Shown in pieces: positions 1 through 15,686 of a DNA stretch of 32,104 bases; positions within the stretch are counted from its first letter, which is position 1, and each line of letters begins with the position of its first letter. Below the pieces are notes generated by a model. It searched no databases. It was not told the DNA's origin and was given only the letters and a program-made list of their open reading frames with translations. A program made the translations under genes and the position numbers. Origin of the DNA: Candidatus Eiseniibacteriota bacterium (GTDB taxonomy: Bacteria > Eisenbacteria > RBG-16-71-46); assembly GCA_031364845.1 (NCBI GenBank), contig JANLWX010000051.1, positions 1 through 32,104 on the forward strand, given 5' to 3'.

Positions 1-317
1 GTCCCGATTGCGACGTTGGGACTTAAAGGGTTAAACAGATCCTGTAGCATATTATAACAATAATAGATTTATATAGATAATTATCTTTTTATTCTCTTAT
101 CAAAATTTGATAGGCAAAAATCTAAAAGTTGATAGCCTAAAGGCTATAGCCTAACAAAAGCATATTTTTATTGCACACACTGAATGCAGATGCCCTTTCA
201 TTCCATTATTTTAATAAATAATAATAATTATTATCATTATTTTATGCGGTGATTCTTTAATTAAATCGTCGACGAAAACACTCAAAATGGAAATTTTACA
301 AAAACACCCAAAATTAT

Positions 318-471
318 CTGACGCTTGCCATGAGCATTTATCGTATATGCATAATCACTGGAATATTTTACCATGCACGATAAAACCACGGAAATTCACA
401 ATATTCCCGTGGTTGTAACGCTCATGGTAAAAATTCGAATGGTTATGCTATGATGGTCATTACGAAGTCAG
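318..471. repeat. Long imperfect inverted repeat (fold-back element)
   Basis: Nested complementary blocks: CTGAC 318-322/GTCAG 467-471; GCATAATCA 349-357/TGGTTATGC 440-448; TTTTACCATG 366-375/CATGGTAAAA 423-432; AACCACGG 384-391/CCGTGGTT 407-414. Confidence 0.7.
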
Positions 472-653
472 CAGCTGTTTTCAAAACAGTTACAAATGGT
501 TAGACCTAGGCTTGTTTGGTGAATCAGCTGTTCGCACAGTAAATCAGCTGATGATCAGCTGTTGTCTGCTATTTATACACCCATAACTTCGACCTTTCTT
601 TCTACTATAGAAGATCACAAATAACACAAAAGGCTAAAGTCATAATTACACAG

Positions 654-811
654 CAATATAACAGATATAACAATATAACAGATATAACAATATAACAGAT
701 ATAACAATATAACAATTATAATAAAAATATATTATAATAATATAACAATAATATAATAATAACAATATAACAGATATAACGATAAAACAGGTATAGCAAT
801 ATATAATACAA
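654..811 (+). repeat. 17-bp tandem minisatellite with degenerate extension
   Basis: Three exact copies of AACAGATATAACAATAT at 660-676, 677-693 and 694-710, then degenerate A/T-rich copies (e.g. 761-790). Confidence 0.9.
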
Positions 812-820
812 CAGCTGTCG

Positions 821-1801
821 TTGCGGCTCGAGAAGGAGTTTGGCGCCGGGTACAGCGCGACGAATTTGAAGCTGTTTCGACAGTTCTTCCTTGGGTACCC
901 AAACCTTCTCCAGCAGGCAATCGGTCACCCAGCGGGTGACCGATCTCTCGTGCGCGCGCCAATCACAAATGAGCTGACCCGCGCGTCGGCAATTGGTCAC
1001 GCAGTGGGTGACCAATTCTGGAGCCCTGGCCGACTTCACCCGAACCTGTCCTGGTCGCTGTACCGGCAACTGATGCAGGTCGAGTCCGAGATCGCCCGTG
1101 CGTTCTACGAAACTGAAGCTGTCCAGAATCATTGGACAAGGCGCGAACTGGAGCGTCAGATCAACAGCCTGCTCTTCGAGCGTCTCGCCAGAAGTCGTGA
1201 CAAGGCTGGCCTGATGCGCCTCGCCCGCAAGGGGCAAGAAGTTGAGGGACCCGCGGACGTCTTCAAAGATCCGATGGTAATCGAATTTCTGGGGCTACCG
1301 GAGTCCCCACGGCTGGTCGAAACCGACATCGAACGGGCGCTACTGCAGAACCTGCAGGCCTTCCTGCTCGAGCTGGGTAAGGGCTTCGCGTTCGTCGCGC
1401 GCCAACAGCGGATCACGCTCGATGGAGATCACTTCTACATCGATCTCGTCTTCTATCACACGATCCTGAAGTGCTTCGTGTTGATCGATCTAAAGGTTGG
1501 AAAGCTCACGCACCAGGATCTCGGGCAGCTCCAGCTCTACGTCAATTACTTCGACCGGGAGCGAAGAACTGTCGGCGATCAACCGTCGCTTGGCTTGATC
1601 CTTTGCACGGACAAGAATGATGCGGTCGTGCGCTACACACTCGGGGTCGATCAACAGCGCAAGATCTTCGCAAGCCGATACAAGCTGCACGTCCCGACAG
1701 AGGCCGAGCTGAAGGCGGAGCTCCGCCGTGAACTCCATGACCTGGTGGTGAGGCCAGCCACTAAGCGTCGCGCAGCCGTCCCCCGACGGAAGCCTCGATG
1801 A
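821..1801 (+). CDS. YhcG/DUF1016-family PD-(D/E)xK nuclease domain protein, 5'-truncated
   Basis: Family motifs EFGxGYSxxNL, LSWSxYRxL, RAFYExEA, WTRRELERQI, KDP..EFLGL, FLLELGKGFAFVARQ, YIDLVFYH..LKCFVLIDLK, DLGQLQLYVNYFD, GLILC. The usual N-terminal part is absent. The frame reads QLSLRLEKEFG from about 812, so TTG 821 is probably not the true start. Confidence 0.9.
   Translation: MRLEKEFGAGYSATNLKLFRQFFLGYPNLLQQAIGHPAGDRSLVRAPITNELTRASAIGHAVGDQFWSPGRLHPNLSWSLYRQLMQVESEIARAFYETEAVQNHWTRRELERQINSLLFERLARSRDKAGLMRLARKGQEVEGPADVFKDPMVIEFLGLPESPRLVETDIERALLQNLQAFLLELGKGFAFVARQQRITLDGDHFYIDLVFYHTILKCFVLIDLKVGKLTHQDLGQLQLYVNYFDRERRTVGDQPSLGLILCTDKNDAVVRYTLGVDQQRKIFASRYKLHVPTEAELKAELRRELHDLVVRPATKRRAAVPRRKPR
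916..1018. repeat. Two related in-frame palindromes inside the YhcG gene
   Basis: ATCGGTCACCC-AGC-GGGTGACCGAT (920-944) and AATTGGTCAC-GCAGTGG-GTGACCAATT (991-1017), 72 bp apart, encoding AIGHPAGDR and AIGHAVGDQ. Confidence 0.85.
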
Positions 1802-4488
1802 ATCGCCACGTCAACACGATTGCCGGGCGACTGAGCCTGCGCCCCCCGCAGCGCCAGTCCCTCGAGATACTCGATCGCATCGTCGAGATTGTGCCGCCCA
1901 GGAAGGGCGCCGATATCGAGGTCGCTCTGGCAGCGGTCCGCAGTGAGTTCCCGAGCGTCACGGACTTCGAGCGGGAGTTCCCGTCGGTGTGTTTCGCTCT
2001 GGCAACCGGAGTCGGCAAGACGCGGTTGATGGGTGCCTTCATCAGCTACCTGCACATGGCGCATGGACACAATAATTTCTTCGTTCTAGCGCCCAACCTC
2101 ACGATCTACAACAAATTGATCGCCGATTTCACCCCGAACACTCCCAAGTATGTGTTCAAAGGCATTGCGGAATTTGCGACCGATGCGCCTGAGATCATCA
2201 CGGGCGACAACTACGAGAGCCGCGCAGGCACCCTGTTCGACGAACTGATCCGCTGCAAGGTGAACATCTTCAACATATCGAAGATCAACTCAGAGGTCCG
2301 CGGGGGCAAGGCCCCACGCATCAAGCGGCTTTCGGAGTACATCGGCGAGAGCTACTTCGACTATCTGGCTGGACTGCCCGACCTCGTGCTCATCATGGAC
2401 GAGTCGCACCGGTATCGCGCCTCGTCCGGCGTGCGCGCGATCAACGAACTGAAGCCCGTAATGGGCCTCGAGCTGACGGCAACGCCGTTCGTGGAGTCGA
2501 ACAAGGGACCGGTGCCGTTCAAGAACGTGGTGCTCGACTACCCGCTCGGCCGGGCGATGACCGATGGTTTCGTGAAGGAACCCGCCGTGGTCACGCGCAA
2601 GGACTTCAACCCGGCGGGCATGTCTCCCGAGGAGATCGAACGGCTCAAGCTCGAAGACGGCGTTCGGCTCCACGAGAGCGTCAAAGTCGAGTTGGAGACC
2701 TATGCTCGAGAAACCGGCAACAACGTCGTCAAACCCTTCGTGCTGGTGATTGCCCGCGACACGACACATGCCGGCGAGTTGATGAAGCTGATCGAGTCCG
2801 ATCATTTCTTCGAAGGCCGCTACTCAGGACGCGTGCTTCAAGTGGACTCGAGCCGAACCGGCGCCGAAGAGGACGCGATGGTCGAGAAGCTCCTCAAGGT
2901 GGAGCACGCGGACGAGCCAACCGAAATTGTGATCCACGTGAACATGCTGAAGGAAGGCTGGGACGTGACGAATCTGTACACAATCGTCCCGCTACGCGCT
3001 GCCAATGCGCGCACTCTGATCGAACAGTCGATCGGACGCGGCCTGCGGCTACCTTACGGCAAGCGCACTGGCGTCATCGCCGTGGATCGGCTCAACATCG
3101 TCGCTCACGACCGGTTCCAGGACATCGTCGACGAGGCGAATCGCCCGGACTCAGTGGTGCGCCTGCAGCAGGTGGTGCTGGATGGGGAGCAGCTCGAGAA
3201 GAAGTTGGTGACGATCGTCTCGGAGCCGATGCTGGCGGCGCGTCTTGGGCTGGCGGCGAATTCCGCGCCAGGCGTCGGAGCTGCGCGTGCTAGTACGCCA
3301 CCAGTTTTCTCTAACCCCGAGGAGCAAAGAGTCGCGCAGCTCGCGTATGAAGTAATCCGCAAGTTCGAGTTTCAGCCAGAAGTTGTCCCCGGTGTGGCGA
3401 GTCTCGCGCAGCCCCAAGTCCAAGCCGAGATCGCGCGCGAAGTTGCGAGGCAGTACCTTCCGCCGCAACTTGAAATGGAAGGCGTGACTCCAGTGGTTGA
3501 CGTGGCCGCCGTCGTGGCCCGAACCACCGAGGCGGTGGTTCAACAGACCATCGACATTCCGCGGATTGTCGTGGTTCCCACGGGTGTCGTGCGATCAGGT
3601 TTTCGCCCCTTCACGCTCGATTTAGCGGCGCTCAGGTATGCCGCGGTGTCTGAAGATCTGTGGATTCAGCACTTGCGCACCGAGCAACGGGACGTGCTCA
3701 CGGCAGGAAAAGGTGGAATCGAAGAGCTTCGGCTCGAAGATTACATTGTGAGCGGCCTCGTCGACTTCGACGACGTGTCCTACGACGATCATTCTGAGCT
3801 TCTCTACGATCTGGCTCGCCAGGCGGTGGAGCACCTGAACCGGTACCTGCCAGCGGACGACACGCGCCGCGTTCTCCAGTGCTACCAGCGAGACATCGCC
3901 CGCTTCATTCATGCACAGATGCAGGCGCACCACTGGGAAGAAGCTGCCGGATACGAGGTCAAGATCAGCAAGGGGTTCAGCGAACTGAAGCCCAGCGCCT
4001 ACACGACTTCGGCCAGCGATCCAGTCCTCGACTTTCGCCGCTCGCCGGCTGACAAGAGCAACATGCCAAAATATCTCTTCGGTGGCTTCTCGCGTTGCCT
4101 CTACGCCACGCAGAAGTTTGATTCCGATCCCGAGCGGAAACTAGCCGTGATCCTCGATCGTGACTCAATCAAGTGGTTTCGTCCCGCCAAGGGGCAGTTT
4201 CAGATTTACTACGCTCTCGGTATAGAACATCCGGAGTACCAGCCCGACTTTGTCGCCGAAACCGAGTCAGGCATCCTCATGCTCGAAGTGAAGGCTCGCA
4301 ACGAACTGGACTCGCCCGAAGTCCTTGCCAAAGGTGAAGCCGCTACCCAGTGGTGCCAGCGTGCCAGCGACCATGCCGCCACCCATGCCGCGGGCAAGCC
4401 GTGGACTTATGCCCTTGTGCCGCACGATGTGATTGCGGACAACATGACATTGACGGGCTTGGCCGGGCTGGTTGCGAGCCGCAAGTGA
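1798..4488 (+). CDS. res: Type III restriction-modification system restriction (Res) subunit, SF2 helicase plus PD-(D/E)xK nuclease
   Basis: Walker A ALATGVGKT, DExH box LIMDESH, motif III LTAT, MLKEGWD, QSIGRGLR, and C-terminal YQPDFVAE...LEVK. ATGA overlap with the YhcG stop. Confidence 0.9.
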   Translation: MNRHVNTIAGRLSLRPPQRQSLEILDRIVEIVPPRKGADIEVALAAVRSEFPSVTDFEREFPSVCFALATGVGKTRLMGAFISYLHMAHGHNNFFVLAPNLTIYNKLIADFTPNTPKYVFKGIAEFATDAPEIITGDNYESRAGTLFDELIRCKVNIFNISKINSEVRGGKAPRIKRLSEYIGESYFDYLAGLPDLVLIMDESHRYRASSGVRAINELKPVMGLELTATPFVESNKGPVPFKNVVLDYPLGRAMTDGFVKEPAVVTRKDFNPAGMSPEEIERLKLEDGVRLHESVKVELETYARETGNNVVKPFVLVIARDTTHAGELMKLIESDHFFEGRYSGRVLQVDSSRTGAEEDAMVEKLLKVEHADEPTEIVIHVNMLKEGWDVTNLYTIVPLRAANARTLIEQSIGRGLRLPYGKRTGVIAVDRLNIVAHDRFQDIVDEANRPDSVVRLQQVVLDGEQLEKKLVTIVSEPMLAARLGLAANSAPGVGAARASTPPVFSNPEEQRVAQLAYEVIRKFEFQPEVVPGVASLAQPQVQAEIAREVARQYLPPQLEMEGVTPVVDVAAVVARTTEAVVQQTIDIPRIVVVPTGVVRSGFRPFTLDLAALRYAAVSEDLWIQHLRTEQRDVLTAGKGGIEELRLEDYIVSGLVDFDDVSYDDHSELLYDLARQAVEHLNRYLPADDTRRVLQCYQRDIARFIHAQMQAHHWEEAAGYEVKISKGFSELKPSAYTTSASDPVLDFRRSPADKSNMPKYLFGGFSRCLYATQKFDSDPERKLAVILDRDSIKWFRPAKGQFQIYYALGIEHPEYQPDFVAETESGILMLEVKARNELDSPEVLAKGEAATQWCQRASDHAATHAAGKPWTYALVPHDVIADNMTLTGLAGLVASRK

Positions 4489-7400
4489 AGCTATTTCGAG
4501 CATGGGTGGGGGCATGGCCGGCGGCCGCCTACGCCGTGGTCCTGATCATAGCGGCCGCATTCGCGCTCCCCGCGCGCGCCGAGACGATCTACCCCGACGT
4601 GCCCGCATGGTCTTCGCCGGTCGAGAATACGCGCGGCGTGGCGCTCGGCGACATCGACGGCGACGGTGACCTCGATCTGGTTCGCGGCGGCTTCGGATCC
4701 GCCACCACCCTCATGCTGAACACCGGCGGTGTGTTCGCCGCCGCTCCCGCCTGGACCGGCCCGGTCGAGGTCACACGCTGCGTGGTGCTCGGCGATGTGG
4801 ACGGCGATGGCGATCTCGACCTCGTGCGCGGCAACAACGCGGGTGGCGCGTCGCTGTACCTCAATACGGGTGGCATATTCGCAAACACTCCGGTCTGGAG
4901 GGGCCTTGACGAGCAGACCCGTGCGATCACGCTCGCGGACATCGATCGTGACGGCGACCTGGATCTGATCTCTGCCAATCTCGTCCCGGGCTCGACCGTG
5001 TATCGCAACATCGGCGGCACTTTCGAGGCTGCACCGGTGTGGACGAGCCCGGTCGCTCTGAGCAACGGTCTCGCCGTGGGCGACGTGAACGGCGATGGGT
5101 GGCTCGACGTCGTGCTCGGCAACCTCAACGATCGTTCCACGCTGTTCCTCAATTCCGCGGGCGCACTGTCGCTCACCGCGAACTGGTCGGGGCCGATCGA
5201 GCAGACGCGCGCGGTGGCGCTCGGCGATGTGGACCGCGACGGCGATCTCGATCTGGTGCGTGGCAATCTGAACGCGGGCTCGACGCTTACGCTGAACACC
5301 GGAGGAACGTTCGAGGCTTCGCCCGCGTGGACGGGGCCGGTCGAGCAGACTTACGCGGTCGCGCTCGGCGATGTCGACGACGATGGCGGGTTGGATCTCA
5401 TCCGCGGAAACAACGGACCGGCAACGCTGACCCTCAATGTGGGCGCTACGTTCGGCGGAGTTCCACATTGGGTCGGCCCGGTGGAGGACAGCCGCTGTCT
5501 CGCGCTCGGTGACCTTGACGGCGACGGCGATCTCGATCTGGCGCGCGGCAATTTCGATCAGGCCAGCACTCTCTATCTCAACCTTTCGAGTCCGCTGTCC
5601 GTGTCGCCTGTCTGGAGCCGCGCGTCCGAGGACACGCGATCGGTGGCTTTCAGCGACATCGACGGCGATGGCGATCTCGACGTGGTGCGCGGAAATCTCG
5701 ACCAGGGAGCCACACTCGTCCGCAGTGTTGCCGGCGTGCTGGACCTGCTCCCGAGTTGGACGGGACCAGCGGAGAACACGCTGGCCGTGGCGCTCGGCGA
5801 CGTCGATCGCGATGGAGATCTCGATCTGGTGCGCGGGAATTTCAGTCAAGGGTCGACGCTCTATTTGAATGTCGCCGGCATCTTCACGACGGTTCCCGCG
5901 TGGACCGGGCCCGTGGACGACGTGCGCGCGGTCGCTCTTCATGATTTGGATCGCGATGGCGACCTCGATCTGATCACCGGCAGCACCACGCACGGTGCCA
6001 GGGTTTATCGCAACACGGACGGCTCGTTCAGTGCCGAGCCGGTGTGGAGCGGGCCGGTCGAGAGCACCCGCGCGATCGCACTCGACGATGTCGATGGAGA
6101 CGGCGAAACAGATCTCGTGTGCGGCAATCAGACCGGGACGACGCTGCACTTCGGTGTGGACGGAGTGTTCACGGACCTGCCCGTGTGGACGGGGCCGCTC
6201 GAGTTCACGAGCAGCGTCGCGCTGGCCGACATCGATGGCGACGGCGATGCCGACCTGGTGCGCGGCAACGAGAACAGCGGTTCGACTCTCTATCTCAATT
6301 CGGGCGCGGTGTTCTCCGCAACGCCCGCATGGATCGGTCCCACGGAGTCGACGCTCAGCGTCGCGATCGGCGATCTCGACGGCGACGGAGACCTCGATCT
6401 GATCCGCGGCAATCTCGACGGGCCGGCCACGGTGACGCTGAACCACGGCGGCGTCTTCGATCCGCTGCCCGCTGCAACGATCGCGGTCGACAGCACGTGG
6501 TCCATCGCGCTCGCGGATCTCGACGCCGACGGCGATCTCGACGCCATGCTGGGAAACTCGGTTCTGTATTCCAATCGCAGCCCGTGGATCTCGAGTAGCG
6601 GCGGCGTGACGCGGTTGCTGCCGAACAATGCGGCGCACCTGCGCCGCCTGAGCGCGATGAACTCGGCGGACAATCGCGTGACGCTCGGCTTCGAGGCGGT
6701 GGACGCGGAGTCGGATCCACTCTCGATCGTCGGCGACTATCAGTTTCGGGGTGATGTGACATGGCACCCGATGGACCTGGGAGCGGGCAGCGCCTCCGCG
6801 GGACCGTTCTCGAGTTCGCCCGCGGGCATCACGCATGCGCTCGACTGGGATGTGACACGCGTTCCGTTCGATCGCCGCGACGTCGTCGTGAGACTGCGCG
6901 CGAACTCGCCGCCGCGACGCGCGGGCGACATCGCCTTCGAGCCCACCTACGTGAAGGAAGTCGGGCGCGTCGAGCCGGTGCGGCCTTCGCTCGCCGCCAC
7001 TCCGGCGACGCTCACGTTTCCCACTGTCACGGTCGGCGACACCGTGAACGTGACGCTGCGAATCGCGAATGCCGGCAACCGCAATCTGATCATCGGATCC
7101 ATCGCGGCGTCGGCGCCCGAGATCACGATCGACTTCGCCTCCGGCGACACGATTCTGGCTGGGCAGGATAGGAATGTGATCGTGCACCTCGCGCCGCGCG
7201 CGCTGCTGCCGTTCGAGCCTTCGATTCACATCACCGGCAACGATCCGACGCGGCCGGCGCTCGACGTCGCCATCGAGACCGACGTGCGCGATCTCACGTT
7301 CCAGACGCAGTTGCTCGCGGTGGCGCCGCAACTTCCGCTGGGTCAGGCGGCGACGGTGGTCGTCACGCCGGGGCCGCAGGTGCAGATCGAGAGCGGGTGG

Positions 7401-9365
7401 GTGTTGTACCGGCCGCATGGCGCCATCGCGTTCGCCGACAGTTCGCCGCTCGTGCGCCAGGGCAGCAACTTCATTGCGCTGGTGCCGAGCCGGGGTGTGA
7501 CGGAGGCGGGGCTCGACTATTACGTGCGCGTCGAGAATAGCGGCGTCGTGCGCTCCGATCCGCCGGACGCTCCCGCGAATGTCGTCTACTATCCGGTCGC
7601 TCCGCCCGACACGGTGATCGCGAGCGCGAGCCCCGATGCGCGCGACGCATTTCCTGCCTCACGCGAAACACCGGTGGTGGTGTCGTTACCGGCGGGATCA
7701 CAGTTCGTCGAGGGCTCGCTCTACTTTCGCGCCGGAGGTTCGGCGGTATTCGACAGCGTGGCGTTGCAGACGCGCGAGGTATCGCCCGGCATCTCCGCAC
7801 CGCTCGCTGTGATTCCCGCCGGGTCGGTGGGGCCGCGCGGCATCGAGTTCTGGGTGCGCGCGCACACGCTCACGAACACGCTGACCGATCCCTCCGATGC
7901 GCCCGCGACGGTCAAGACGGTTCGCGTCACCGTCGATCGCCTCGCCGAGCCCGCGACGCATGCCGGCCGGCGCTATCGGCTCGTCACCGTGCCCCTCGAA
8001 CTCGACCTGCCGGTCGGCGCATCGATCGAAGCGCTGCTCTCGGATCAGCAGGAGTTCGGTCCGCCCGACATCACGCGCTGGCGCGCGTTCCGCTACGACC
8101 CAACGGCAAGCCACTATCTCGAAGTCGGCGCTTCGTCGGCCAACCCGAAACTCCATCCGGAACCCGGCCGGGCGTTCTGGCTGATCGCCGCCGACGCGAA
8201 CGCTATCGACTCGGCTCCGGTGCCGGGACGCTCGACGCCGACCGGGGCCGCGTTTCGCATCGCGCTCGAACCCGGATGGAATCAGATCGGCGATCCGTTT
8301 GTGTTCCCGGTCGCATGGAGCGCGGTGCGCGCTGAAGGCAGTTCGGGCGCGGTCGCGATCGACCCACCGGTCGCGTGGAACGAATCGCTTCAGCGTTATT
8401 CGGATACGGACGTCGAAACGCTCGCGCCGTTCGAAGGCTACTGGGTGTCGAATCCGACGACGGCGGTGATCGATCTCATCGTGCCGGCGGTGGAAGCGCC
8501 CGCGCTGCTCGAAGCGTCGCGCGTGGCCGCCGCGGCGGAACACGCGAAGAAGCCCGCCGCGACGCCGGGCGATGTCGCCGCATGGAACATCCGGATCGAA
8601 GTCGCCTCCGGGAATCATGCGGACACACGCAATATCGCCGGCGTCGATCCGCGGGCACTCGCGGGCCGCGACGCGCTCGATCGCACCGAGCCGCCGGGAT
8701 CACCCGGCGGAGGCGTGTCGCTCTACTTCCTCGACCCATCCGGCGCAGATCCCGCGCGTCGCACGGTCGACATGCGCGCGCCGATCACCGGCACCACAGA
8801 TCCCACGACGCGCGGACAGCGCTGGGCGTTCGACGTCGTGCGCTTTGGCGATCCGGAGTCATCGTCCGAAGCGCGCCTGACGTTCGCCGGCCTCGAAGGA
8901 ATTCCGGCGGAGCACGAGTTGCGGCTGGTCGACCACGCACTCGGACGCGTGATCGATCTGCGCGCCGTGAACGATTATCCTTTCGTCTCGACGCGCCGCG
9001 CGGCGGTCGCGAAGGCCGGCGATGCGCGCTTCGAGTTGCTCGCCGGGGCGCCCGAATTCGTCGCATCGGGACTTGCCGCGCGACCGCTCGAGACGCGACT
9101 CTTGCCGAGCTTTCCGAGCCCGATGACCTCCACGACGACGATCCGATTCGAGCTGGCGCAGCGGGGTCGCGTGGAGATCGATGTGTTCGATGTCGCTGGA
9201 CGCCGGGTGCGCGGACTGGTGCGCGACGAACGTGCCGCGGGCATTCAGGAGCTGTCGTGGAATGGCGCGGACGACGGCGGACAGTCGCTGGCGCCCGGCA
9301 TCTATCTGGTTCGCATGGTCACACCCGGAACCACCCAGGAGCGACGCGTGGTGAAGATCCGATGA
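4485..9365 (+). CDS. Large secreted FG-GAP/VCBS-repeat protein with Ig-like domains and a C-terminal FlgD-Ig/T9SS-type domain
   Basis: Likely GTG start at 4485 overlaps the res stop and gives the signal peptide VKLFRAW...FALPARA|E. There are 14 DxDxDGDxD Ca-binding repeats, an ASH/choice-of-anchor-D-like Ig domain (LTFPTVTVGDT..LRIANAGNRNLII..I), a LEPGWNQI motif, and a C-terminal FPSP..TTIRF..VFDVAGRRVR..WNG.D..G..LAPGIYLVR. Confidence 0.88.
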   Translation: MKLFRAWVGAWPAAAYAVVLIIAAAFALPARAETIYPDVPAWSSPVENTRGVALGDIDGDGDLDLVRGGFGSATTLMLNTGGVFAAAPAWTGPVEVTRCVVLGDVDGDGDLDLVRGNNAGGASLYLNTGGIFANTPVWRGLDEQTRAITLADIDRDGDLDLISANLVPGSTVYRNIGGTFEAAPVWTSPVALSNGLAVGDVNGDGWLDVVLGNLNDRSTLFLNSAGALSLTANWSGPIEQTRAVALGDVDRDGDLDLVRGNLNAGSTLTLNTGGTFEASPAWTGPVEQTYAVALGDVDDDGGLDLIRGNNGPATLTLNVGATFGGVPHWVGPVEDSRCLALGDLDGDGDLDLARGNFDQASTLYLNLSSPLSVSPVWSRASEDTRSVAFSDIDGDGDLDVVRGNLDQGATLVRSVAGVLDLLPSWTGPAENTLAVALGDVDRDGDLDLVRGNFSQGSTLYLNVAGIFTTVPAWTGPVDDVRAVALHDLDRDGDLDLITGSTTHGARVYRNTDGSFSAEPVWSGPVESTRAIALDDVDGDGETDLVCGNQTGTTLHFGVDGVFTDLPVWTGPLEFTSSVALADIDGDGDADLVRGNENSGSTLYLNSGAVFSATPAWIGPTESTLSVAIGDLDGDGDLDLIRGNLDGPATVTLNHGGVFDPLPAATIAVDSTWSIALADLDADGDLDAMLGNSVLYSNRSPWISSSGGVTRLLPNNAAHLRRLSAMNSADNRVTLGFEAVDAESDPLSIVGDYQFRGDVTWHPMDLGAGSASAGPFSSSPAGITHALDWDVTRVPFDRRDVVVRLRANSPPRRAGDIAFEPTYVKEVGRVEPVRPSLAATPATLTFPTVTVGDTVNVTLRIANAGNRNLIIGSIAASAPEITIDFASGDTILAGQDRNVIVHLAPRALLPFEPSIHITGNDPTRPALDVAIETDVRDLTFQTQLLAVAPQLPLGQAATVVVTPGPQVQIESGWVLYRPHGAIAFADSSPLVRQGSNFIALVPSRGVTEAGLDYYVRVENSGVVRSDPPDAPANVVYYPVAPPDTVIASASPDARDAFPASRETPVVVSLPAGSQFVEGSLYFRAGGSAVFDSVALQTREVSPGISAPLAVIPAGSVGPRGIEFWVRAHTLTNTLTDPSDAPATVKTVRVTVDRLAEPATHAGRRYRLVTVPLELDLPVGASIEALLSDQQEFGPPDITRWRAFRYDPTASHYLEVGASSANPKLHPEPGRAFWLIAADANAIDSAPVPGRSTPTGAAFRIALEPGWNQIGDPFVFPVAWSAVRAEGSSGAVAIDPPVAWNESLQRYSDTDVETLAPFEGYWVSNPTTAVIDLIVPAVEAPALLEASRVAAAAEHAKKPAATPGDVAAWNIRIEVASGNHADTRNIAGVDPRALAGRDALDRTEPPGSPGGGVSLYFLDPSGADPARRTVDMRAPITGTTDPTTRGQRWAFDVVRFGDPESSSEARLTFAGLEGIPAEHELRLVDHALGRVIDLRAVNDYPFVSTRRAAVAKAGDARFELLAGAPEFVASGLAARPLETRLLPSFPSPMTSTTTIRFELAQRGRVEIDVFDVAGRRVRGLVRDERAAGIQELSWNGADDGGQSLAPGIYLVRMVTPGTTQERRVVKIR

Positions 9366-10240
9366 AGAACGCCCGCGTGATGCGTGTGCTCTCGGCGCTG
9401 CTGCTCTGTGTTCAGACCGCGGGCAGCGTGATTCCCGCGCGTGCTCAGGCGCCTGCCGCGGCGACCGATTCCACGATCGTCGCGCCGACAGACACGACGT
9501 CTCTCGTGACGCCGCTGGCGAGCGTCGCGGATTCCACGGCCGCCCATGCCGCGGCCCTCGAGCGCGCGCGAGAGATGCTGCGTGACGGCGACTACGACCG
9601 CTCGATCGAAGTGCTGAAGGGCGCGCTCGAGCGCGCGGGCTCCGATCCCGAGCGTTTGCGCGAGACGTATCTGCTGCTGATCAAGACCTACGTGTTCCTC
9701 GGCAACGATCTCAAGTTCAAGCCGCAAGGCCGCGAAGCCTCGAACCTGAACTATCAGGAGGCGCGCCGTCTGATCGCCGAGTGCCTCGGACGCCGCGAGC
9801 TGCGGCACATGTATCCCGAGCCCGCGTCTCAGTACCCGCCCGAGATGGTCACGTTCTTCGCCGAGACGCGCCGCAACATCTTCGGCGCGTTCCGCGTGCA
9901 GGAAGTCGTACCCGCGACCGCACTCGTGCTGCTCGACGGCGACACGCTGCGCACGCTGCCCGGCGAAACGCAGATGGGCGACGTCGACATCGCGACCGGC
10001 GAGCACGTGGTCGTGGTGAGCGCGCCCGGTTTCAAGGAGACGACCGATCGCATCACGATCGCTCCCGACGTCACGCTCGAACGCAGCTACCGCCTGGTCA
10101 AGCGCAAGGGCGGCATGTGGTACGCGACGCGCGGCGCGGGGGCGCTGGGCCTCGTGGGCGGCGTGATCGCCGCGATCGCGAGCCGCGGCGGCACCGGGCC
10201 GACGGCGGCTCCGCTGCCAAGCGCACCCGACCCGCCGTAG
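9362..10240 (+). CDS. Exported TPR-like/PEGA-domain protein with C-terminal Gly-rich hydrophobic helix
   Basis: ATG 9362 overlaps the upstream stop (ATGA). Signal peptide ending PARA|Q, helical TPR-like segment (ALERAREMLRDGDYDRSIEVL), PEGA-like ALVLLDG...GEHVVVVSAPGF, then GAGALGLVGGVIAAIA and a Pro-rich tail. Confidence 0.8.
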   Translation: MKNARVMRVLSALLLCVQTAGSVIPARAQAPAAATDSTIVAPTDTTSLVTPLASVADSTAAHAAALERAREMLRDGDYDRSIEVLKGALERAGSDPERLRETYLLLIKTYVFLGNDLKFKPQGREASNLNYQEARRLIAECLGRRELRHMYPEPASQYPPEMVTFFAETRRNIFGAFRVQEVVPATALVLLDGDTLRTLPGETQMGDVDIATGEHVVVVSAPGFKETTDRITIAPDVTLERSYRLVKRKGGMWYATRGAGALGLVGGVIAAIASRGGTGPTAAPLPSAPDPP

Positions 10241-10244
10241 ACGT

Positions 10245-12185
10245 TCAGTTCTTCTTGCCGAACAGGCGCTGCAGCAGCGGCTGCTTCACGCTCGCGCCCG
10301 CTTCGAGCCGCACGAACTCGTCGAACGCCGAAGCGAACAACTTCGAGCGCCCGCCTTCGGTCTCGGCGAGATTGCGGCTCTCGAGTTCGGACAGCACGTG
10401 GCGCAGCGCATCGGGCAGGCTCTTGCCGGTGGCGACGCGCAGCACCGTGCTGCGCTCGTGCTCGTCGAATCCTTCCCAGATGTAACGGAAGTGGAGCCGC
10501 GCCTCCTCGTAAAACCTCCGGCGCACTTCCTTGAAATCGGGCTCGCTCGTTTCCGGATGCTCGTCGAGATATTCGATCGCGTGCGAGCACGCCATCTGGA
10601 TGAAGAACGGAAACCGCCCGGCCATGTCGATGATCGTGTCGGCATACGCGCCGAGCGGTTTGCCGACGCGCTCCGACGGCACCTTGATCAGCGTCTCCGC
10701 TTCGTCGCGCTTGAATACCGAAACCTGAAGCGCCGAGAAAATGTTGAAGAACGGCGAGTCGGAGATCTCCTTGGTGTGGCACAGCTGCTGAAGATCGCGC
10801 TCGGAGGACGTGAGGTAGGCCACGTTGAAGTGGTTCGCGAGATAGCGCAGGAACGAGAAGAACTCGAGCGTGAAGTTGGCGTTGGTGGTCACGGTCTCGA
10901 ATTCGTCGAGCACCAGCACCAGCCGGAAACCTCCGCTGTCGAGCCGCTGCACCAGGTCGCGCACGCCATCGAGGTTGTGCGCACAGCCGGTCAGATCGAT
11001 GCGACCGCGCAACTCGAGTTCGGCGATGCCGATCAGCGTGCGCACGAACGTCTCCATCGACATGCCGGTGTCGCGCTGCAGATCGAGGAACACCATCACC
11101 ATCTTGTCGGGGTGCTCGAGGAACTTCTGGCGATTCGCGCGGCTGTAGACGTAGTTGAGCAGCGACGACTTGCCGATCTTGCGCTGGCCGACGACCGAGA
11201 TCGATCCCGGCGGAGTGGCGTTGAAGCGCGCGTAGATGCGCTTCACTTCCTGGCTGCGGCCGAAGAAGTCGTCGGGGTGCTTGATCATGGTGCGGTTGAG
11301 GAACGGATTGCGCGGCGTCTCGCGCGGCCCGAGCTGCGGGGTGCCGATCGGCCCCGACGCCTTCTGGACGTCGGGCCGCGAGACGAGTTCCGCGAGCGCG
11401 CGCTCGACTTCGTTCATCGACGCGGGCCGTTGCGCGGCCTCCTTCGAGAGGCAGCGGGTGACGAGTTGGACGAGCGGCGCCGGGCAATCCGGAAGATAGT
11501 CGGTCAGCGGTTCCGGAGTGCGCTGGGCGATGTTGTACATCATCGACATCGGATGCTCGGCGCGGAACGGATGCACGCCGGTCAGCGCCTCGTACAGGAT
11601 GACGCCGATCACGAACACTTCTGAAGAGGGCGAAGCCTCGCCGTGGTTCAGTTGCTCGGGCGACAGGTACGCCATCGTGCCGACCAGCATGCCGGCGGAA
11701 TCCATCGATGGCATCGCGCCGATCGTTTTCGCGAGCCCGAGATCGAGGATCTTGGCGACGCCGTCTTCGAGCACCATGATGTTGTTGGGCGACAGATCAC
11801 GATGCAGCATGCCCATGCCGTGGATCGCACCGAGCCCCGCGGCCACCTGGCGCATGATCTCGACGATCCGCAAAGCCGGCGGGCGTTCGGCTTCGACCAC
11901 CGCACGCAGCGTGCGGCCGAGCACGAACTCCATCGCGATGTAGGGACCATTGGCACTGCTGCCGAGCCGGTAGATGTGGACGACGTTCGGATGATTCAGG
12001 CTCGCGAGGCTCTTGCCTTCGGCCATGAAGCGGCGCATGTCGCGTTCGGCGATCGGCCCCTGGCGCAGCATCTTGAGCGCGACCGTGCGGTCGAGGTCCA
12101 GTTCGGTGCACCGATACACCACGCCGAACCCGCCCTCGCCGAGCACGCCGTCGATCCGGTAGCCATCGATGACGGTACCGATCAT
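10245..12185 (-). CDS. Hanks-type Ser/Thr kinase fused to a STAND/AAA-like P-loop ATPase
   Basis: Kinase motifs GEGGFG, VALK, HRDLSPNN, DLG, YLSPE. ATPase motifs NPF...FFGRSQE, Walker A GQRKIGKSS, Walker B LVLVLDEFE, AGRFP (GxP-like), and a helical C-terminus. Confidence 0.9.
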   Translation of the reverse strand: MIGTVIDGYRIDGVLGEGGFGVVYRCTELDLDRTVALKMLRQGPIAERDMRRFMAEGKSLASLNHPNVVHIYRLGSSANGPYIAMEFVLGRTLRAVVEAERPPALRIVEIMRQVAAGLGAIHGMGMLHRDLSPNNIMVLEDGVAKILDLGLAKTIGAMPSMDSAGMLVGTMAYLSPEQLNHGEASPSSEVFVIGVILYEALTGVHPFRAEHPMSMMYNIAQRTPEPLTDYLPDCPAPLVQLVTRCLSKEAAQRPASMNEVERALAELVSRPDVQKASGPIGTPQLGPRETPRNPFLNRTMIKHPDDFFGRSQEVKRIYARFNATPPGSISVVGQRKIGKSSLLNYVYSRANRQKFLEHPDKMVMVFLDLQRDTGMSMETFVRTLIGIAELELRGRIDLTGCAHNLDGVRDLVQRLDSGGFRLVLVLDEFETVTTNANFTLEFFSFLRYLANHFNVAYLTSSERDLQQLCHTKEISDSPFFNIFSALQVSVFKRDEAETLIKVPSERVGKPLGAYADTIIDMAGRFPFFIQMACSHAIEYLDEHPETSEPDFKEVRRRFYEEARLHFRYIWEGFDEHERSTVLRVATGKSLPDALRHVLSELESRNLAETEGGRSKLFASAFDEFVRLEAGASVKQPLLQRLFGKKN

Positions 12186-12188
12186 TTC

Positions 12189-14363
12189 TTATCGCCCTCC
12201 TTCGGGTCTGCGCGTGATGGCGTTCTTCGAGAAATCATACGTCGCGCGCTCGCCCGAGCGTACCGCGACCGTGTGATCGATCGTCTCACCCGAGACGAGG
12301 ATCACACGCACGGCGTGGCTGCCGGGCGGCAGTGACCGCGGCCCTGAATTCTGCACGTTTTCGACGACGAGTGCGCCATCGACATAGATCTGAGCGGGAA
12401 GATCGCCGAGCACGACCAGCACACCCGGAGCCTCGCGGTTCAGCGTGAGATGCAACTGGCGCGTCGCGTCGGTGACGACGAGCGTGGTTTCGGCGTCGTT
12501 GTAGCCGTCGCGCGCCGCGCGGAACACGTGGCGTCCGAGCGGGAGCGAGGCCGTCACCGGTGCGGTGCCGCGCGCGGTTCCGTCGACGCGGATCTCGCCG
12601 CCACCGGGTTCGGTCGTGACCAGCATCGAAGCGGTTCCCATCTCGAGCACGAGCGCCGAGGTCGTCACGGTGTTGGCGGCGACCGACACGTCGGCACGCG
12701 CGACTCCGTAGCCGTCGCGCGAGGCTTCGACGCGATGGGTGCCTCTGACCGCGAGCCCGCGCACGGTGAGCGGACTCTTGCCCGCGACTTTGCCATCGAT
12801 CCGCACCTCGGCGCCGGGCGGTGTCGTTTCGACCCGCACGTCTCCGATCAGCGACCTCAGTGCCACGCGCACCGTCACCGTGTCGCCCTCGGCGATCTGC
12901 GTGCTGATCACGGTGTCGGCGAAGCCGGTGGCGGAGAACTCGAGCTTGTGACTACCGGCGGCAATTCGATCGGCGAGTGCGCCCAGCCCGACGCGTGTTC
13001 CGTCCATGCGCAGGACCGCATCGTCAGGCTCGACCGCGAGGATCAAGAACCCGCCGGCGCCGGGCGCGAGCACGGCAGGAGTGCTCTGCGGCGCGCGCAT
13101 CAGCCTCGGCACGATGATCAGCGCAGATGCTCCCATCAGGCCGACTGCGACCGGAAGAATCTTGCGCCATCGCGCGGCCGGCTTGCGGATCGCGAGCCCT
13201 TCTTCGCGCATGACCTGCCACACCGAATGCTGGCGGCGGATCCACAGCCGCCACAGGTCCATGCGAAACGCGTAGGCCGGCGTCGTCTCGGCGTCGCTGC
13301 GCAGCAGCATCTCGCTCTTGTAGAGCTTCTCGAGCGTGGTCGCGGTGCGCGCGACGTCGAGCTCGAGCGGATACTTCTGCTTCTTGAGATGCCGCAGCAG
13401 CGCGTCGACGCTCGCGTATCCTTCACCGTTCTCGACGCACTCGGCGAGCAGCGACAGCACGAGCTTGTCGTCGCGCTCGAGCCCGTCCCACAGAAAGATC
13501 ATCTGCGGCAGCGGATTGTTGATGATGCCGTCGACCACTTCCGCGATCTGCGCGATGTCGGCCACGCGCGCGTGCCGGTCGTTCAGATGATCGACCAGAC
13601 TCTGGCAGATCGCCTGCGTGTAGAACGGCTGACCCGCGGTCATGCGAATGATCGCTTCGACCGCGGCGTCTTCGTAGTCGAGCCGGCCCGCGACCGGCTG
13701 GCGGATCAGGTTGAGCGCATCATCGTGCTCGAGATAGCTGACCGTCTTGTAGCCCGACTTGCCGAGGATGCTCCAGTAGTCGCGGCGCCGCTGCTCGAGA
13801 TGCTGCGAGCCGGTGAACACCATGAACACCGAGGCGTTCTCCATCAGCGCGGCGAGGATGTTGAGCACGTCCTCCGACAACAGGCCGGCGTCGATCTTGT
13901 TCTCGAACAGCTCGTACTCATCGAACAACAGAATCAGCTTGCGCCCGGGCTGCGCGCGCAGGCACTGCTGCACGAAGCGCGCGAATATCGTCGAGCGGGA
14001 CGATTCGCCGCTGAAGTCCGGCGATGCGATGCCTTCGACGCCGGTTCCGATGGCCGTGAGGATCTCTTCGGAGACGCGCATCAGGAATTCGGCTTCACTG
14101 CCGACCGCCATCGACTGCATGTCGATCAGCACCGGGATGAACGCGGGTCCGAGACGGTGGTCCAGGATCTGGAACAGGATCGATGTTTTGCCGCTGCGCC
14201 GTTCGCCGCAGAACACGAGCAGGCCGCCGTGCTCCGAATGCTCGAAACGCTTGCGGATCAGGTTGAACTCCGCCTCGCGCCCGAAGAACATCGCCCGTCC
14301 CCGCACCGGATTGCCCACGATGTAGGGGTTGGGACTGATCGGAGTGAAGGCAGCGTCGTTCAT
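12189..14363 (-). CDS. STAND/AAA-like ATPase - transmembrane helix - four PEGA-like domains
   Basis: NPYIVGNPV..FFGREAE, Walker A GERRSGKTS, Walker B LILLFDEYE, TAGQPF. TM segment ILPVAVGLMGASALIIVP follows the basic RWRK. PEGA repeats include TTPPGAEVRIDG..GKSP and TEPGGGEIRVDG..GTAP. Confidence 0.9.
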   Translation of the reverse strand: MNDAAFTPISPNPYIVGNPVRGRAMFFGREAEFNLIRKRFEHSEHGGLLVFCGERRSGKTSILFQILDHRLGPAFIPVLIDMQSMAVGSEAEFLMRVSEEILTAIGTGVEGIASPDFSGESSRSTIFARFVQQCLRAQPGRKLILLFDEYELFENKIDAGLLSEDVLNILAALMENASVFMVFTGSQHLEQRRRDYWSILGKSGYKTVSYLEHDDALNLIRQPVAGRLDYEDAAVEAIIRMTAGQPFYTQAICQSLVDHLNDRHARVADIAQIAEVVDGIINNPLPQMIFLWDGLERDDKLVLSLLAECVENGEGYASVDALLRHLKKQKYPLELDVARTATTLEKLYKSEMLLRSDAETTPAYAFRMDLWRLWIRRQHSVWQVMREEGLAIRKPAARWRKILPVAVGLMGASALIIVPRLMRAPQSTPAVLAPGAGGFLILAVEPDDAVLRMDGTRVGLGALADRIAAGSHKLEFSATGFADTVISTQIAEGDTVTVRVALRSLIGDVRVETTPPGAEVRIDGKVAGKSPLTVRGLAVRGTHRVEASRDGYGVARADVSVAANTVTTSALVLEMGTASMLVTTEPGGGEIRVDGTARGTAPVTASLPLGRHVFRAARDGYNDAETTLVVTDATRQLHLTLNREAPGVLVVLGDLPAQIYVDGALVVENVQNSGPRSLPPGSHAVRVILVSGETIDHTVAVRSGERATYDFSKNAITRRPEGGR

Positions 14364-14471: not shown

Positions 14472-15686
14472 ATGTCCGACATCTACCTCGCCCGTCAGCC
14501 GATCTTCGACCGCACCGAGGCCGTGATCGGCTATGAACTCCTGCATCGCTCGGGCCCCGAGAACGTCTTCGCGCGCATCGACAGCGATGTCGCATCGAGC
14601 CAGACCGTGGACCGGGCGGCGATGGGGGTGGGGCTCGATGAGCTGACCGACGGGCGCCTCGCGTTCGTCAACGTCTCGCGACGGGTGCTGGTCGAGGAGA
14701 TCTACACGCTGCTGCCCACGCAGCGCACGATCATCGAACTGCTCGAGAACGTGGCCCCCGATCCCGAGGTCTTGAAAGCCTGCTATCGGCTCAAGGCTTA
14801 CGGATACAAGCTCGCGCTCGACGATTTCGTCGGCGATCCGCGCTACATCGAAATGCTCGCCCTCGCCGACATCGTGAAGATCGATGTGCTCGACGAGTCG
14901 GCGCCGCGCGTGCTCAAGATGGTGGCACCGATGCGCGAACGCGGATTGCGGCTGGTGGCCGAGAAGGTCGAGACGCACGAAATGCATCGCGCCGCGATCG
15001 ACAGCGGCTACGACCTGTTCCAGGGCTACTTCTTCTGCCGGCCGCAGATGGTGCAGACGAAGGACGTGTCGCCCACCAAGCTCAACGCCATGCGCTTCCT
15101 GAGCGAAGTGGTCCGCGAGGACGCGTCGTTCGAGCGGCTCGAAGAGATCTTCCGCCAGGAAGTCTCGCTGTCGACGCGGCTGCTGCGCTATCTGAACTCG
15201 GCGGGCCTCGGCTGGACCAGCGAAATCACGTCGCTCAATCACGCGCTGCGCCTGGTGGGTCTCAAGCAGCTCCAGAAGTGGGGTGCGATGATGTGCGTGG
15301 TGACTCTCGCGGCCGACCAGCCGCAGGAGCTGGCGTCGGCAGCGCTCGCGCGTGCGCGCTTCTCCGAGCAGCTCAGCGGCGTGATGGGGCAGGCCGGTCA
15401 CGAGCTCGACCTGTTTCTCACCGGGCTCCTGTCGCTGATGGATGCGATGGTGGGGCGGCCGCTCGCGGAAGTCCTCTCGAGCATGACGATCTCCGATCAC
15501 GTGCGCACCGCGCTGGTCCAGGGCGGCACGCCGCTCGCCAACGTGCTGACGCTGGTGACCGCGTACGAGCGCAGCGACTGGCAGCAGGTGCAGGGCATTC
15601 TCGACGCCGGCGATCTCGAAGCGCGCCGCGTGCACGACGTCTACACCGAGTCTCTGCGCTGGGCGCGTGAGGCAGCGGCGTTCTAG
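14472..15686 (+). CDS. EAL and HDOD domain protein (putative c-di-GMP phosphodiesterase, YuxH/CdgJ-like)
   Basis: True start is probably ATG 14472 (MSDIYLARQPIFD). EAL motifs YELLHR, FVN, IIELLE, ALDDF, IVKID, AEKVET, FQGYFF, followed by HDOD motifs LLRYLNSA and LFLTGLLSLMDA. Confidence 0.9.
   Translation: MSDIYLARQPIFDRTEAVIGYELLHRSGPENVFARIDSDVASSQTVDRAAMGVGLDELTDGRLAFVNVSRRVLVEEIYTLLPTQRTIIELLENVAPDPEVLKACYRLKAYGYKLALDDFVGDPRYIEMLALADIVKIDVLDESAPRVLKMVAPMRERGLRLVAEKVETHEMHRAAIDSGYDLFQGYFFCRPQMVQTKDVSPTKLNAMRFLSEVVREDASFERLEEIFRQEVSLSTRLLRYLNSAGLGWTSEITSLNHALRLVGLKQLQKWGAMMCVVTLAADQPQELASAALARARFSEQLSGVMGQAGHELDLFLTGLLSLMDAMVGRPLAEVLSSMTISDHVRTALVQGGTPLANVLTLVTAYERSDWQQVQGILDAGDLEARRVHDVYTESLRWAREAAAF

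Follow-up and report, generated by a model that had tools for sequence, protein, structure and literature searches.

STAND ATPases, which signal by oligomerising, are known in bacteria chiefly as cytoplasmic immune sensors or as one-chain regulators. Closest to the locus reported here is the nSTAND2 two-gene operon, presented in the accessible portion of its description as a mobile pair of STAND plus winged helix-turn-helix modules with one inactive STAND, GT4 or HEPN effectors and a predicted hetero-multimer (Kaur, Iyer, Burroughs and Aravind 2021, eLife, PMC8195603). A transmembrane segment combined with PEGA is mentioned, in the available part of another account, only for the iSTAND and GAP1-N2 systems (Kaur et al. 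2020, PMC7159879), and a 2026 survey of STANDs treats, in its accessible part, cytoplasmic sensors (bioRxiv 10.64898/2026.01.04.697583). Among receptor kinases, PpkA-RtkS of Serratia and PpkA-TagR of Pseudomonas appear in the available sections of their description as Hanks receptor kinases made in one piece, with an activator in the periplasm (PMC6082577). Here, we analyzed a four-gene locus in a stretch of 32,104 nucleotides (hereafter, the window), which is one entire contig (JANLWX010000051.1) of a 4.6-Mb Candidatus Eiseniibacteriota genome with 66% GC. In this locus, a membrane-bound and a soluble STAND ATPase, termed R and K, lie beside the genes of two predicted exported proteins, F and P. 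The ATPases of R and K are a strictly co-inherited pair, and we read the locus, with a probability of roughly 60%, as a receptor kinase in which two STANDs form a relay between membrane and kinase, and in which F, P, R and K would form a chain across the envelope. The feature itself is real and conserved, a form of the paired-STAND arrangement that seems to have been adapted to signalling across the membrane.

A membrane-bound and a soluble STAND ATPase

R (12189..14363, minus strand, 724 aa) comprises a STAND-type ATPase with a helical lid and a winged helix (residues 10-390), a transmembrane helix (~401-420, with the hydrophobic helix placed at 401-419 by sequence analysis) and a row of sandwich domains (437-720). 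The original prediction had given this protein an ATPase, a transmembrane segment and four PEGA-type domains; in line with this, its AlphaFold2 model (mean pLDDT 86) contained four beta-sandwiches at 437-720, two of which are scored as PEGA stretches by Pfam. The ATPase carries the motifs NP..FFGR..E, Walker A GERRSGKT and Walker B LLFDEYE and matches Pfam AAA_22, and no match of R to nSTAND2 (PF20702) was obtained at E 0.01. The best target TM-scores for the R model were those of Orc1/Cdc6 and archaeal STAND-type ATPases (2qen, 0.62; 1w5t, 0.57; 2fna, 0.55).

K (10245..12185, minus strand, 646 aa) has no transmembrane segment and joins a Hanks-type Ser/Thr kinase (residues 1-270) to an nSTAND2-family ATPase with a winged helix (293-640). 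The kinase, already proposed for the N-terminus of the second ATPase, shows the motifs K38, E56, HRDLSPNN and DLG; K38, E56, H128-R129-D130, N135, D148 and G150 were invariant in 23 aligned kinase sequences, and by its sequence K appears to have every Hanks-type motif tested (Gly loop, catalytic Lys/Glu, HRD..N and D[FL]G). The ATPase of K (NP..FFGR..E, Walker A GQRKIGKS, Walker B LVLDEFE) scored 156 bits on PF20702 against a cut-off of 24, and its sole sequence-level match in the PDB was 2fna (E 7e-6). The proposed homology of both ATPases was confirmed by a direct alignment over about 300 columns (22% identity, E 2e-10) and by profile-profile comparison (probability 99.2%).

When the four open reading frames were re-derived from the window, positions, strands and junctions were as originally described. 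R and K are separated by 3 nt, and a Shine-Dalgarno-like site for K, GGAGGG (12195..12200, minus strand), was located within the 3' end of R, where a ribosome-binding site had been predicted; K is probably translationally coupled to R via this site. On the plus strand, F and P overlap as ATGA, and the stops of P and K converge 4 nt apart.

The extent of the family was judged from 730 proteins and from profile searches with the ATPase domains. These searches yielded 85 confirmed stretches for R and 227 for K, of which the best 80 each were used, and their records are labelled Eisenbacteria, Krumholzibacteriota, Latescibacterota, Calditrichota, KSB1, Acidobacteriota, Spirochaetota and others. 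All loci together provided 111 different R domains and 133 different K domains, reduced to 101 R and 122 K after fragments shorter than 290 aa had been dropped. The split into one membrane and one soluble ATPase, first noted at the window, proved to be family-wide, with a hydrophobic helix adjoining the ATPase in 94/101 R and 0/122 K; the seven R without a flanking helix comprised two truncations, one HAMP-linked receptor and four cases slightly below the threshold. R occurred in the order ATPase-transmembrane helix-ectodomain (79 proteins) and in the reverse order, ectodomain-transmembrane helix-ATPase (19), with three truncated. Because both orientations place the ATPase beside the helix, the R ATPase appears to keep to one membrane side while the rest of the protein is rebuilt.

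A kinase output and a PEGA input, as originally proposed, are true of the window; across the family, each is only one of several. The ectodomains of 40 R that were scanned consisted of PEGA, periplasmic binding protein 6/ANF, Reg_prop/Y_Y_Y propellers, Kelch, TPR or HAMP-linked domains, or gave no Pfam match. A kinase was present on 67 of the 122 K, at the N- or the C-terminus, a class III cyclase on 18 and the two together on 10. A sigma54 activator and a SpoIIE (PP2C) phosphatase occurred once each, and the other 25 K were short, being stand-alone adaptors and possibly, in some cases, broken open reading frames.

Several members of the family depart from the simple pair. An 1178-aa protein (P0013) has CHASE2 and transmembrane segments ahead of an R-type STAND-transmembrane-PEGA protein and, as a single sequence, may be either a read-through or a true two-input receptor. 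At L174:3485-11782, one PEGA receptor is accompanied by three K-type partners (a sigma54 activator, a stand-alone form and a SpoIIE phosphatase), and at L079:91-13057, a Reg_prop receptor and a stand-alone K are followed by a pilin/GspF/GspE-like block (read by eye) and then by a K-cyclase.

Both ATPases have retained their nucleotide-binding motifs. Walker A was kept in 101/101 R and 122/122 K, as well as in 22/22 R and 48/48 K from sets that had not been chosen by motif, and the DE of Walker B was kept in 101/101 R and in 96/97 fused K. In 23/25 short K, DD replaces DE; such DD-type stand-alone K proteins (L075, L083, L087, L113 and others) sit between the receptor and an output gene. G244 and P246 of R, and G523 and P526 of K, were conserved in 98-100% of homologs, and with a P-loop core, a GxP helical domain and a winged helix, R and K have the features that define the STAND class. 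An arginine was conserved in each clade at non-equivalent positions (R192 in 94/101 R; R447 in 122/122 K), and these two residues are candidates for the arginine fingers that both proteins of an nSTAND2 operon are expected to have.

R and K fell into separate clades (support 0.98/0.95) and were found together throughout the set: K was present in the locus for 93/111 R and R for 115/133 K, with the misses lying mostly at contig ends. Five K-only loci were checked, and R was found elsewhere in four of the genomes; for four R-only loci, K was found elsewhere in three, one of which is ambiguous, as the genome of L097 has a second system. G013 has retained both R and K although 0.9 Mb of a single contig separates them. 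Of 172 genomes of the phylum, 10 gave strong matches to R, and the identical 10 gave strong matches to K; G136 and G073 each have both in duplicate. In G109, this search gave a weaker R-like match and no K match at that threshold. Tree distances of R and K over 81 pairs were correlated (r=0.78, a value reached by 0/999 shuffles), the K tree reproduced 37 of the 48 supported splits of the R tree, and nearest neighbours were common to 48 of the 81 pairs. Where one genome has two systems (L006 and L008), each groups with partners from other genomes.

Exported partners and a one-piece counterpart

F (4485..9365, plus strand, 1626 aa) is a predicted secreted propeller protein with a signal peptide, 14 FG-GAP repeats spaced 47-48 aa apart, an Ig-like/ASH segment, a conserved stalk of ~570 aa (termed FGc, residues ~960-1530) and a C-terminal domain of the FlgD/type IX secretion (T9SS) type, which matches TIGR04183 with 26.5 bits against a cut-off of 23. 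The 14 repeats are likely to form two seven-bladed propellers. Among F homologs, the FGc stalk and the FlgD tail are constant, and the head is exchanged (FG-GAP, Kelch, RCC1, DUF5122/Rax2 or InhA-MAM); this exchange of heads suggests that the signal is a macromolecule outside the cell or the surface of another cell or body. The Kelch ectodomain of one receptor (L014) was considered as a sign that such a head had been fused to the receptor, since it is 34-37% identical to the Kelch heads of F homologs, and was rejected as specific evidence, as 21 unrelated open reading frames of the source genome match at 27-41%. A second FGc-FlgD protein of the source genome, which has no propeller head, lies between two kinases on another contig (C21).

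P (9362..10240, plus strand, 292 aa), coupled to F through the ATGA overlap, is a predicted adaptor of the periplasm or envelope with a signal peptide, a TPR-like bundle (52-173), one PEGA sandwich (174-244), a weakly hydrophobic C-terminal helix (251-274) and a conserved, proline-rich LP.PP.PP tail. The pair had been predicted as a secreted FG-GAP protein with a PEGA membrane partner; the signal peptide, the 14 repeats and the PEGA domain stood, and a classical inner-membrane anchor in P was not established, given the weak hydrophobicity of its helix. By language-model features, P resembles myxobacterial TPR-PEGA proteins. Its model also matched weakly two chains of ~77 aa in the RtkS-PpkA entry 9k1u (E ~1e-3, target TM-score 0.61-0.67), a match to a common small beta-sandwich that is merely a lead. 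Loci of spirochaetes, of the KSB1 type and of Calditrichota have next to R, in place of these partners, a gene for an exported protein ending in an apparent outer-membrane barrel (read by eye), with or without TPR-like helices, which suggests that the accessory gene may be linked to the outer membrane.

The synteny of the four genes was examined in a genome-collection search with R, which gave 28 loci, and in wider searches, which brought the set to 37 distinct PEGA-type receptors, that of the window included. Consistent with the predicted conserved unit, the same locus also held K in 34, P in 29 and an F-type gene in 19 of these 37 cases; of the 16 receptors with at least 6 kb of sequence on each side, 15 had K, 15 had P and 13 had F. 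R and K keep one order, and the stop of the first often overlaps the start of the second; the placement of P and F varies, with P-R-K-F on one strand in many loci and R-K converging on F-P as in the window. Among 61 relatives, the identical 4 genomes had R at full length, the ATPase of K and P; the F stalk gave strong matches in these four and in one further genome (G025), and weak ones in five more. Both genome sets, the 61 and the 172, consist of kin, and their counts are not independent trials.

In the interpretation of these associations, one alternative is that the R-K pair is real and that F and P are mere neighbours in cargo-rich regions. FlgD-tailed genes are indeed very common, with 238 open reading frames of the source genome matching the tail profile (and 21 matching one Kelch propeller family), the order and orientation of F vary among loci, and G025 has F without R. 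Nevertheless, the FGc stalk occurs on only two open reading frames of the source genome, P is restricted, among the 61 relatives, to the four genomes with R and K, and the P and F genes track the PEGA branch of receptors: at loci with at least 12 kb of flank, P accompanied 20/24 and FGc 18/24 PEGA-type receptors, and each accompanied 2/44 other receptors. P and F also track a one-piece kinase-PEGA locus, described below, and we regard mere neighbourhood as very improbable.

Another alternative is an inside-out machine, in which the R-K assembly would power or regulate the export, anchoring or remodelling of F via P, in the manner of ExeA/GspA and with the kinase as a regulator. ExeA/GspA proteins, which are further marked by a peptidoglycan-binding domain and an ExeB partner, have an ATPase-transmembrane-periplasmic domain layout, which R shares, and R matches AAA_22; F has a tail of the T9SS type, two PorV-family matches over the cut-off were found in the source genome, and at L079 the pair precedes the pilin/GspF/GspE-like genes seen by eye. 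On the other hand, no NCBIfam or Pfam match to the ExeA-type family was obtained in library scans, in which no direct profile comparison was made, and most non-PEGA receptors are ligand-binding sensors without F or P. Cyclase, phosphatase and sigma54 outputs, moreover, are sensible only as downstream signals, and one R faces 238 FlgD-tailed open reading frames in the source genome. An export role is, on this evidence, quite improbable.

The original prediction had described the locus as a split receptor kinase, and this description fits because a one-piece kinase-transmembrane-PEGA protein with the same outside partners exists in G017, a genome of the window's own family in which profile searches gave no STAND match. 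Its locus (L218:4475-13313) holds a kinase-transmembrane-PEGA gene, a P homolog, an open reading frame of 350 aa of unknown kind, an FGc-FlgD gene and a second kinase-transmembrane-PEGA gene, with an FHA protein upstream. The P homolog matches in its TPR part (probability 98%, E 3e-14) and has the same Gly/Pro tail, with a Pro/Thr linker replacing PEGA, and the ectodomain of the second kinase matches that of R (probability 99%). Of the evidence for R plus K as a receptor kinase into which an ATPase pair was inserted, this single locus is the strongest; the direction of the change is not given by it. In the source genome, a PEGA protein on C178 was rejected as a one-piece copy, since it carries no kinase, and a STAND protein on C204 was rejected as a family member, since it falls as an outgroup.

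Proposed signalling route and the immunity question

The mechanism that we propose draws on the membrane topology of R and K, their strict pairing, their intact motifs and their conserved arginines at different positions. An outside signal would act through the predicted surface propeller F and the predicted periplasmic adaptor P on the PEGA arm of R, a predicted inner-membrane receptor, by putative F-P-R contacts, and would change the clustering or conformation of R. The cytoplasmic STAND ATPase of R might then nucleate an ATP-dependent mixed oligomer with that of K, and the kinase domains so brought together could autophosphorylate. Dimers or larger assemblies are the active state to which Hanks kinases, class III cyclases and sigma54 activators are switched, and activation by induced proximity would fit because these association-switched enzymes are the outputs of the family.

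Several observations weigh against this relay. The agreement between the R and K trees is partly shared descent, and linkage alone would give much of it; K without a detectable R was found in G065 and R without a detectable K in G068, and G025 (74% complete) has a complete F gene but lacks R, K and P. The patchy spread (10/172 genomes) resembles that of accessory or defence systems. The basic residues preceding the C-terminal helix of P fit an inner-membrane anchor poorly, the one-piece counterpart is a single case, and profile searches of the contigs of the source genome gave no kinase-transmembrane-PEGA copy there. Finally, the two-STAND switch seems also to serve a soluble effector of the immune type in G109, where a soluble pair (L217:6069-11218), 3xGAF-STAND followed by STAND-CAP12/Pycsar TIR, is sister to the R and K clades. 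This pair is, in its own right, a candidate defence system with a two-STAND switch.

That the locus itself serves immunity, with F, P and R sensing phage adsorption or envelope attack and an R-K oligomer activating a toxic kinase in abortive infection or dormancy, is unlikely. K belongs to nSTAND2, a family proposed to counter invaders in the accessible portion of its description (PMC8195603), the sister pair in G109 bears a CAP12/Pycsar TIR domain, and both the patchy distribution in the phylum and the variable head of F would suit such a role. A type III restriction gene (Res), which the original prediction took as a hint of immunity, and a YhcG gene abut the unit in the window. This hint did not hold, since no homolog of Res or YhcG was present in the 190 loci fetched (2.8 Mb with overlaps), and immunity as read from the neighbourhood was therefore rejected; the divergent EAL-HDOD gene is likewise not conserved. 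Gene prediction gave 224 flanking genes at 26 loci, and the proteins of 137 of them, at 19 loci, were scanned against PADLOC; five matched at 1e-20 (RtcR-type twice, MAD3, QatD and PDC-M37B/DolB), matches that are partial and were read as generic domains, with no background control. R had no PADLOC match, and those of K were limited to its kinase domain. Domain scans found HEPN, GT4, TIR or nuclease domains on 0/122 K, periplasmic binding proteins of the amino-acid type and Reg_prop/Y_Y_Y sensors are among the inputs, and a search of 72,556 plasmids gave weak distant matches only and no close homolog.

With regard to the surroundings of the locus, the YhcG/DUF1016 nuclease and the type III Res gene occupy positions 1-4488 of the window, a stretch of lower GC (35% in the first kb, then 59-62%) that looks like an island inserted against the 5' end of F; the stop of Res overlaps the GTG start of F. 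The EAL-HDOD gene (14511-15686) runs divergently from R, and a separate kinase-TPR gene lies at 28397-30766. A sigma70 promoter and a terminator at the junction were searched for at the locus, and neither was found. A contig of sequencing run X1 spans 2943-9718 with zero differences, and this run may itself be the source. In the genome-collection search, the nearest full-length named relatives were labelled Candidatus Eisenbacteria, assembly labels that may be wrong, and a 4.6-kb contig that is 84% identical is labelled Deltaproteobacteria, possibly also in error.

Returning to the receptor kinase with a STAND-STAND relay, we give about even chances to the broader reading that the window belongs, as a single branch, to a widespread class of prokaryotic transmembrane signalling systems, in which a hetero-oligomer of two STANDs would replace the His-Asp relay and sensors and outputs would be swapped freely in at least six phyla, with the window adding an F-P-R chain that would predate the ATPase insertion. 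The contribution of the window is the four-part PEGA branch, a surface protein with an exchangeable head and the one-piece counterpart. If this is true, there would be a separate signal route across the bacterial membrane, in which a receptor STAND recruits a STAND with interchangeable outputs, and a bacterial parallel of receptor-plus-NLR signalosomes; a role would also be provided for unannotated PEGA, TPR-PEGA and FlgD-tailed proteins of uncultured FCB-type lineages. The periplasmic-binding-domain inputs and cyclase outputs found in the family suit an assay with ligand in and cyclic AMP out.

Comparison with described systems

The nSTAND2 operon resembles the R-K pair in its two adjacent STAND plus winged helix-turn-helix genes and in the family of K, with its 156 bits on PF20702. 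In the accessible portion of its description (Kaur et al. 2021), however, there is no membrane receptor, one STAND is inactive and the effectors are GT4 or HEPN domains, whereas here R is a single-pass protein and the Walker A and B motifs are kept in both ATPases (Walker A in all 101 R and all 122 K). Signalling enzymes serve as outputs, a kinase in the window and a kinase, cyclase, SpoIIE phosphatase or sigma54 activator in its homologs, and P and F are added. Because these two defining features, the eroded motif and the GT4/HEPN effector, are absent, we do not file the window as a member of the nSTAND2 operon, although it appears to follow the same two-STAND logic. The earlier statement that the architecture belongs to no named system stands to this extent, and has to be qualified by the related soluble two-STAND operon already described. 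The term PEGA is absent from the main text and Figure 6-source data 1 of that paper (PMC8195603). One of its rows, RMG61681.1 (Calditrichaeota; barrel, then STAND, then Pkinase plus cyclic nucleotide monophosphate cyclase), looks like the Calditrichota branch found here, and carries no comment on a receptor in that part of the source.

PpkA-RtkS and PpkA-TagR are alike in that an exported partner binds the periplasmic domain and switches a membrane kinase; as far as the available sections describe them, they differ in having kinase and sensor on one chain that serves type VI secretion, whereas here a STAND pair lies between membrane and kinase. Avs, bNACHT and SWACOS share the STAND switch and the oligomerisation-driven activation of a fused effector, but are, in the accessible part of the 2026 survey (bioRxiv 10.64898/2026.01.04.697583), single tripartite cytoplasmic proteins with TPR/WD40 sensors, and neither R nor K is such a one-chain effector-STAND-repeat sensor of the Avs or NLR-like type; the system has instead two proteins, two STANDs and a sensor outside the membrane. 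The 589 STAND clades of this survey may already classify R and K. The archaeal MNS-type STANDs (SSO1545, 2fna; PABY2304, 2qen) and Cdc6/Orc1 have the same AAA+ core, lid and winged helix, but are soluble, are 12-16% identical and have no receptor, kinase or partner architecture.

The literature searched, which lay for the most part outside subscription journals, yielded no account of a STAND pair with a membrane receptor. Two-component systems consist of a membrane sensor and a separate soluble output linked by a His-Asp relay. The R-K family shares with them its inputs (periplasmic binding protein, Reg_prop/Y_Y_Y, HAMP and CHASE2) and its outputs (cyclase, PP2C and sigma54 activator), but has no histidine kinase or receiver domain and has the ATPase pair as its link, so that it is alike in logic and not a member. 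The four genes together probably form a route, little described so far, by which an outside signal reaches the cell interior.

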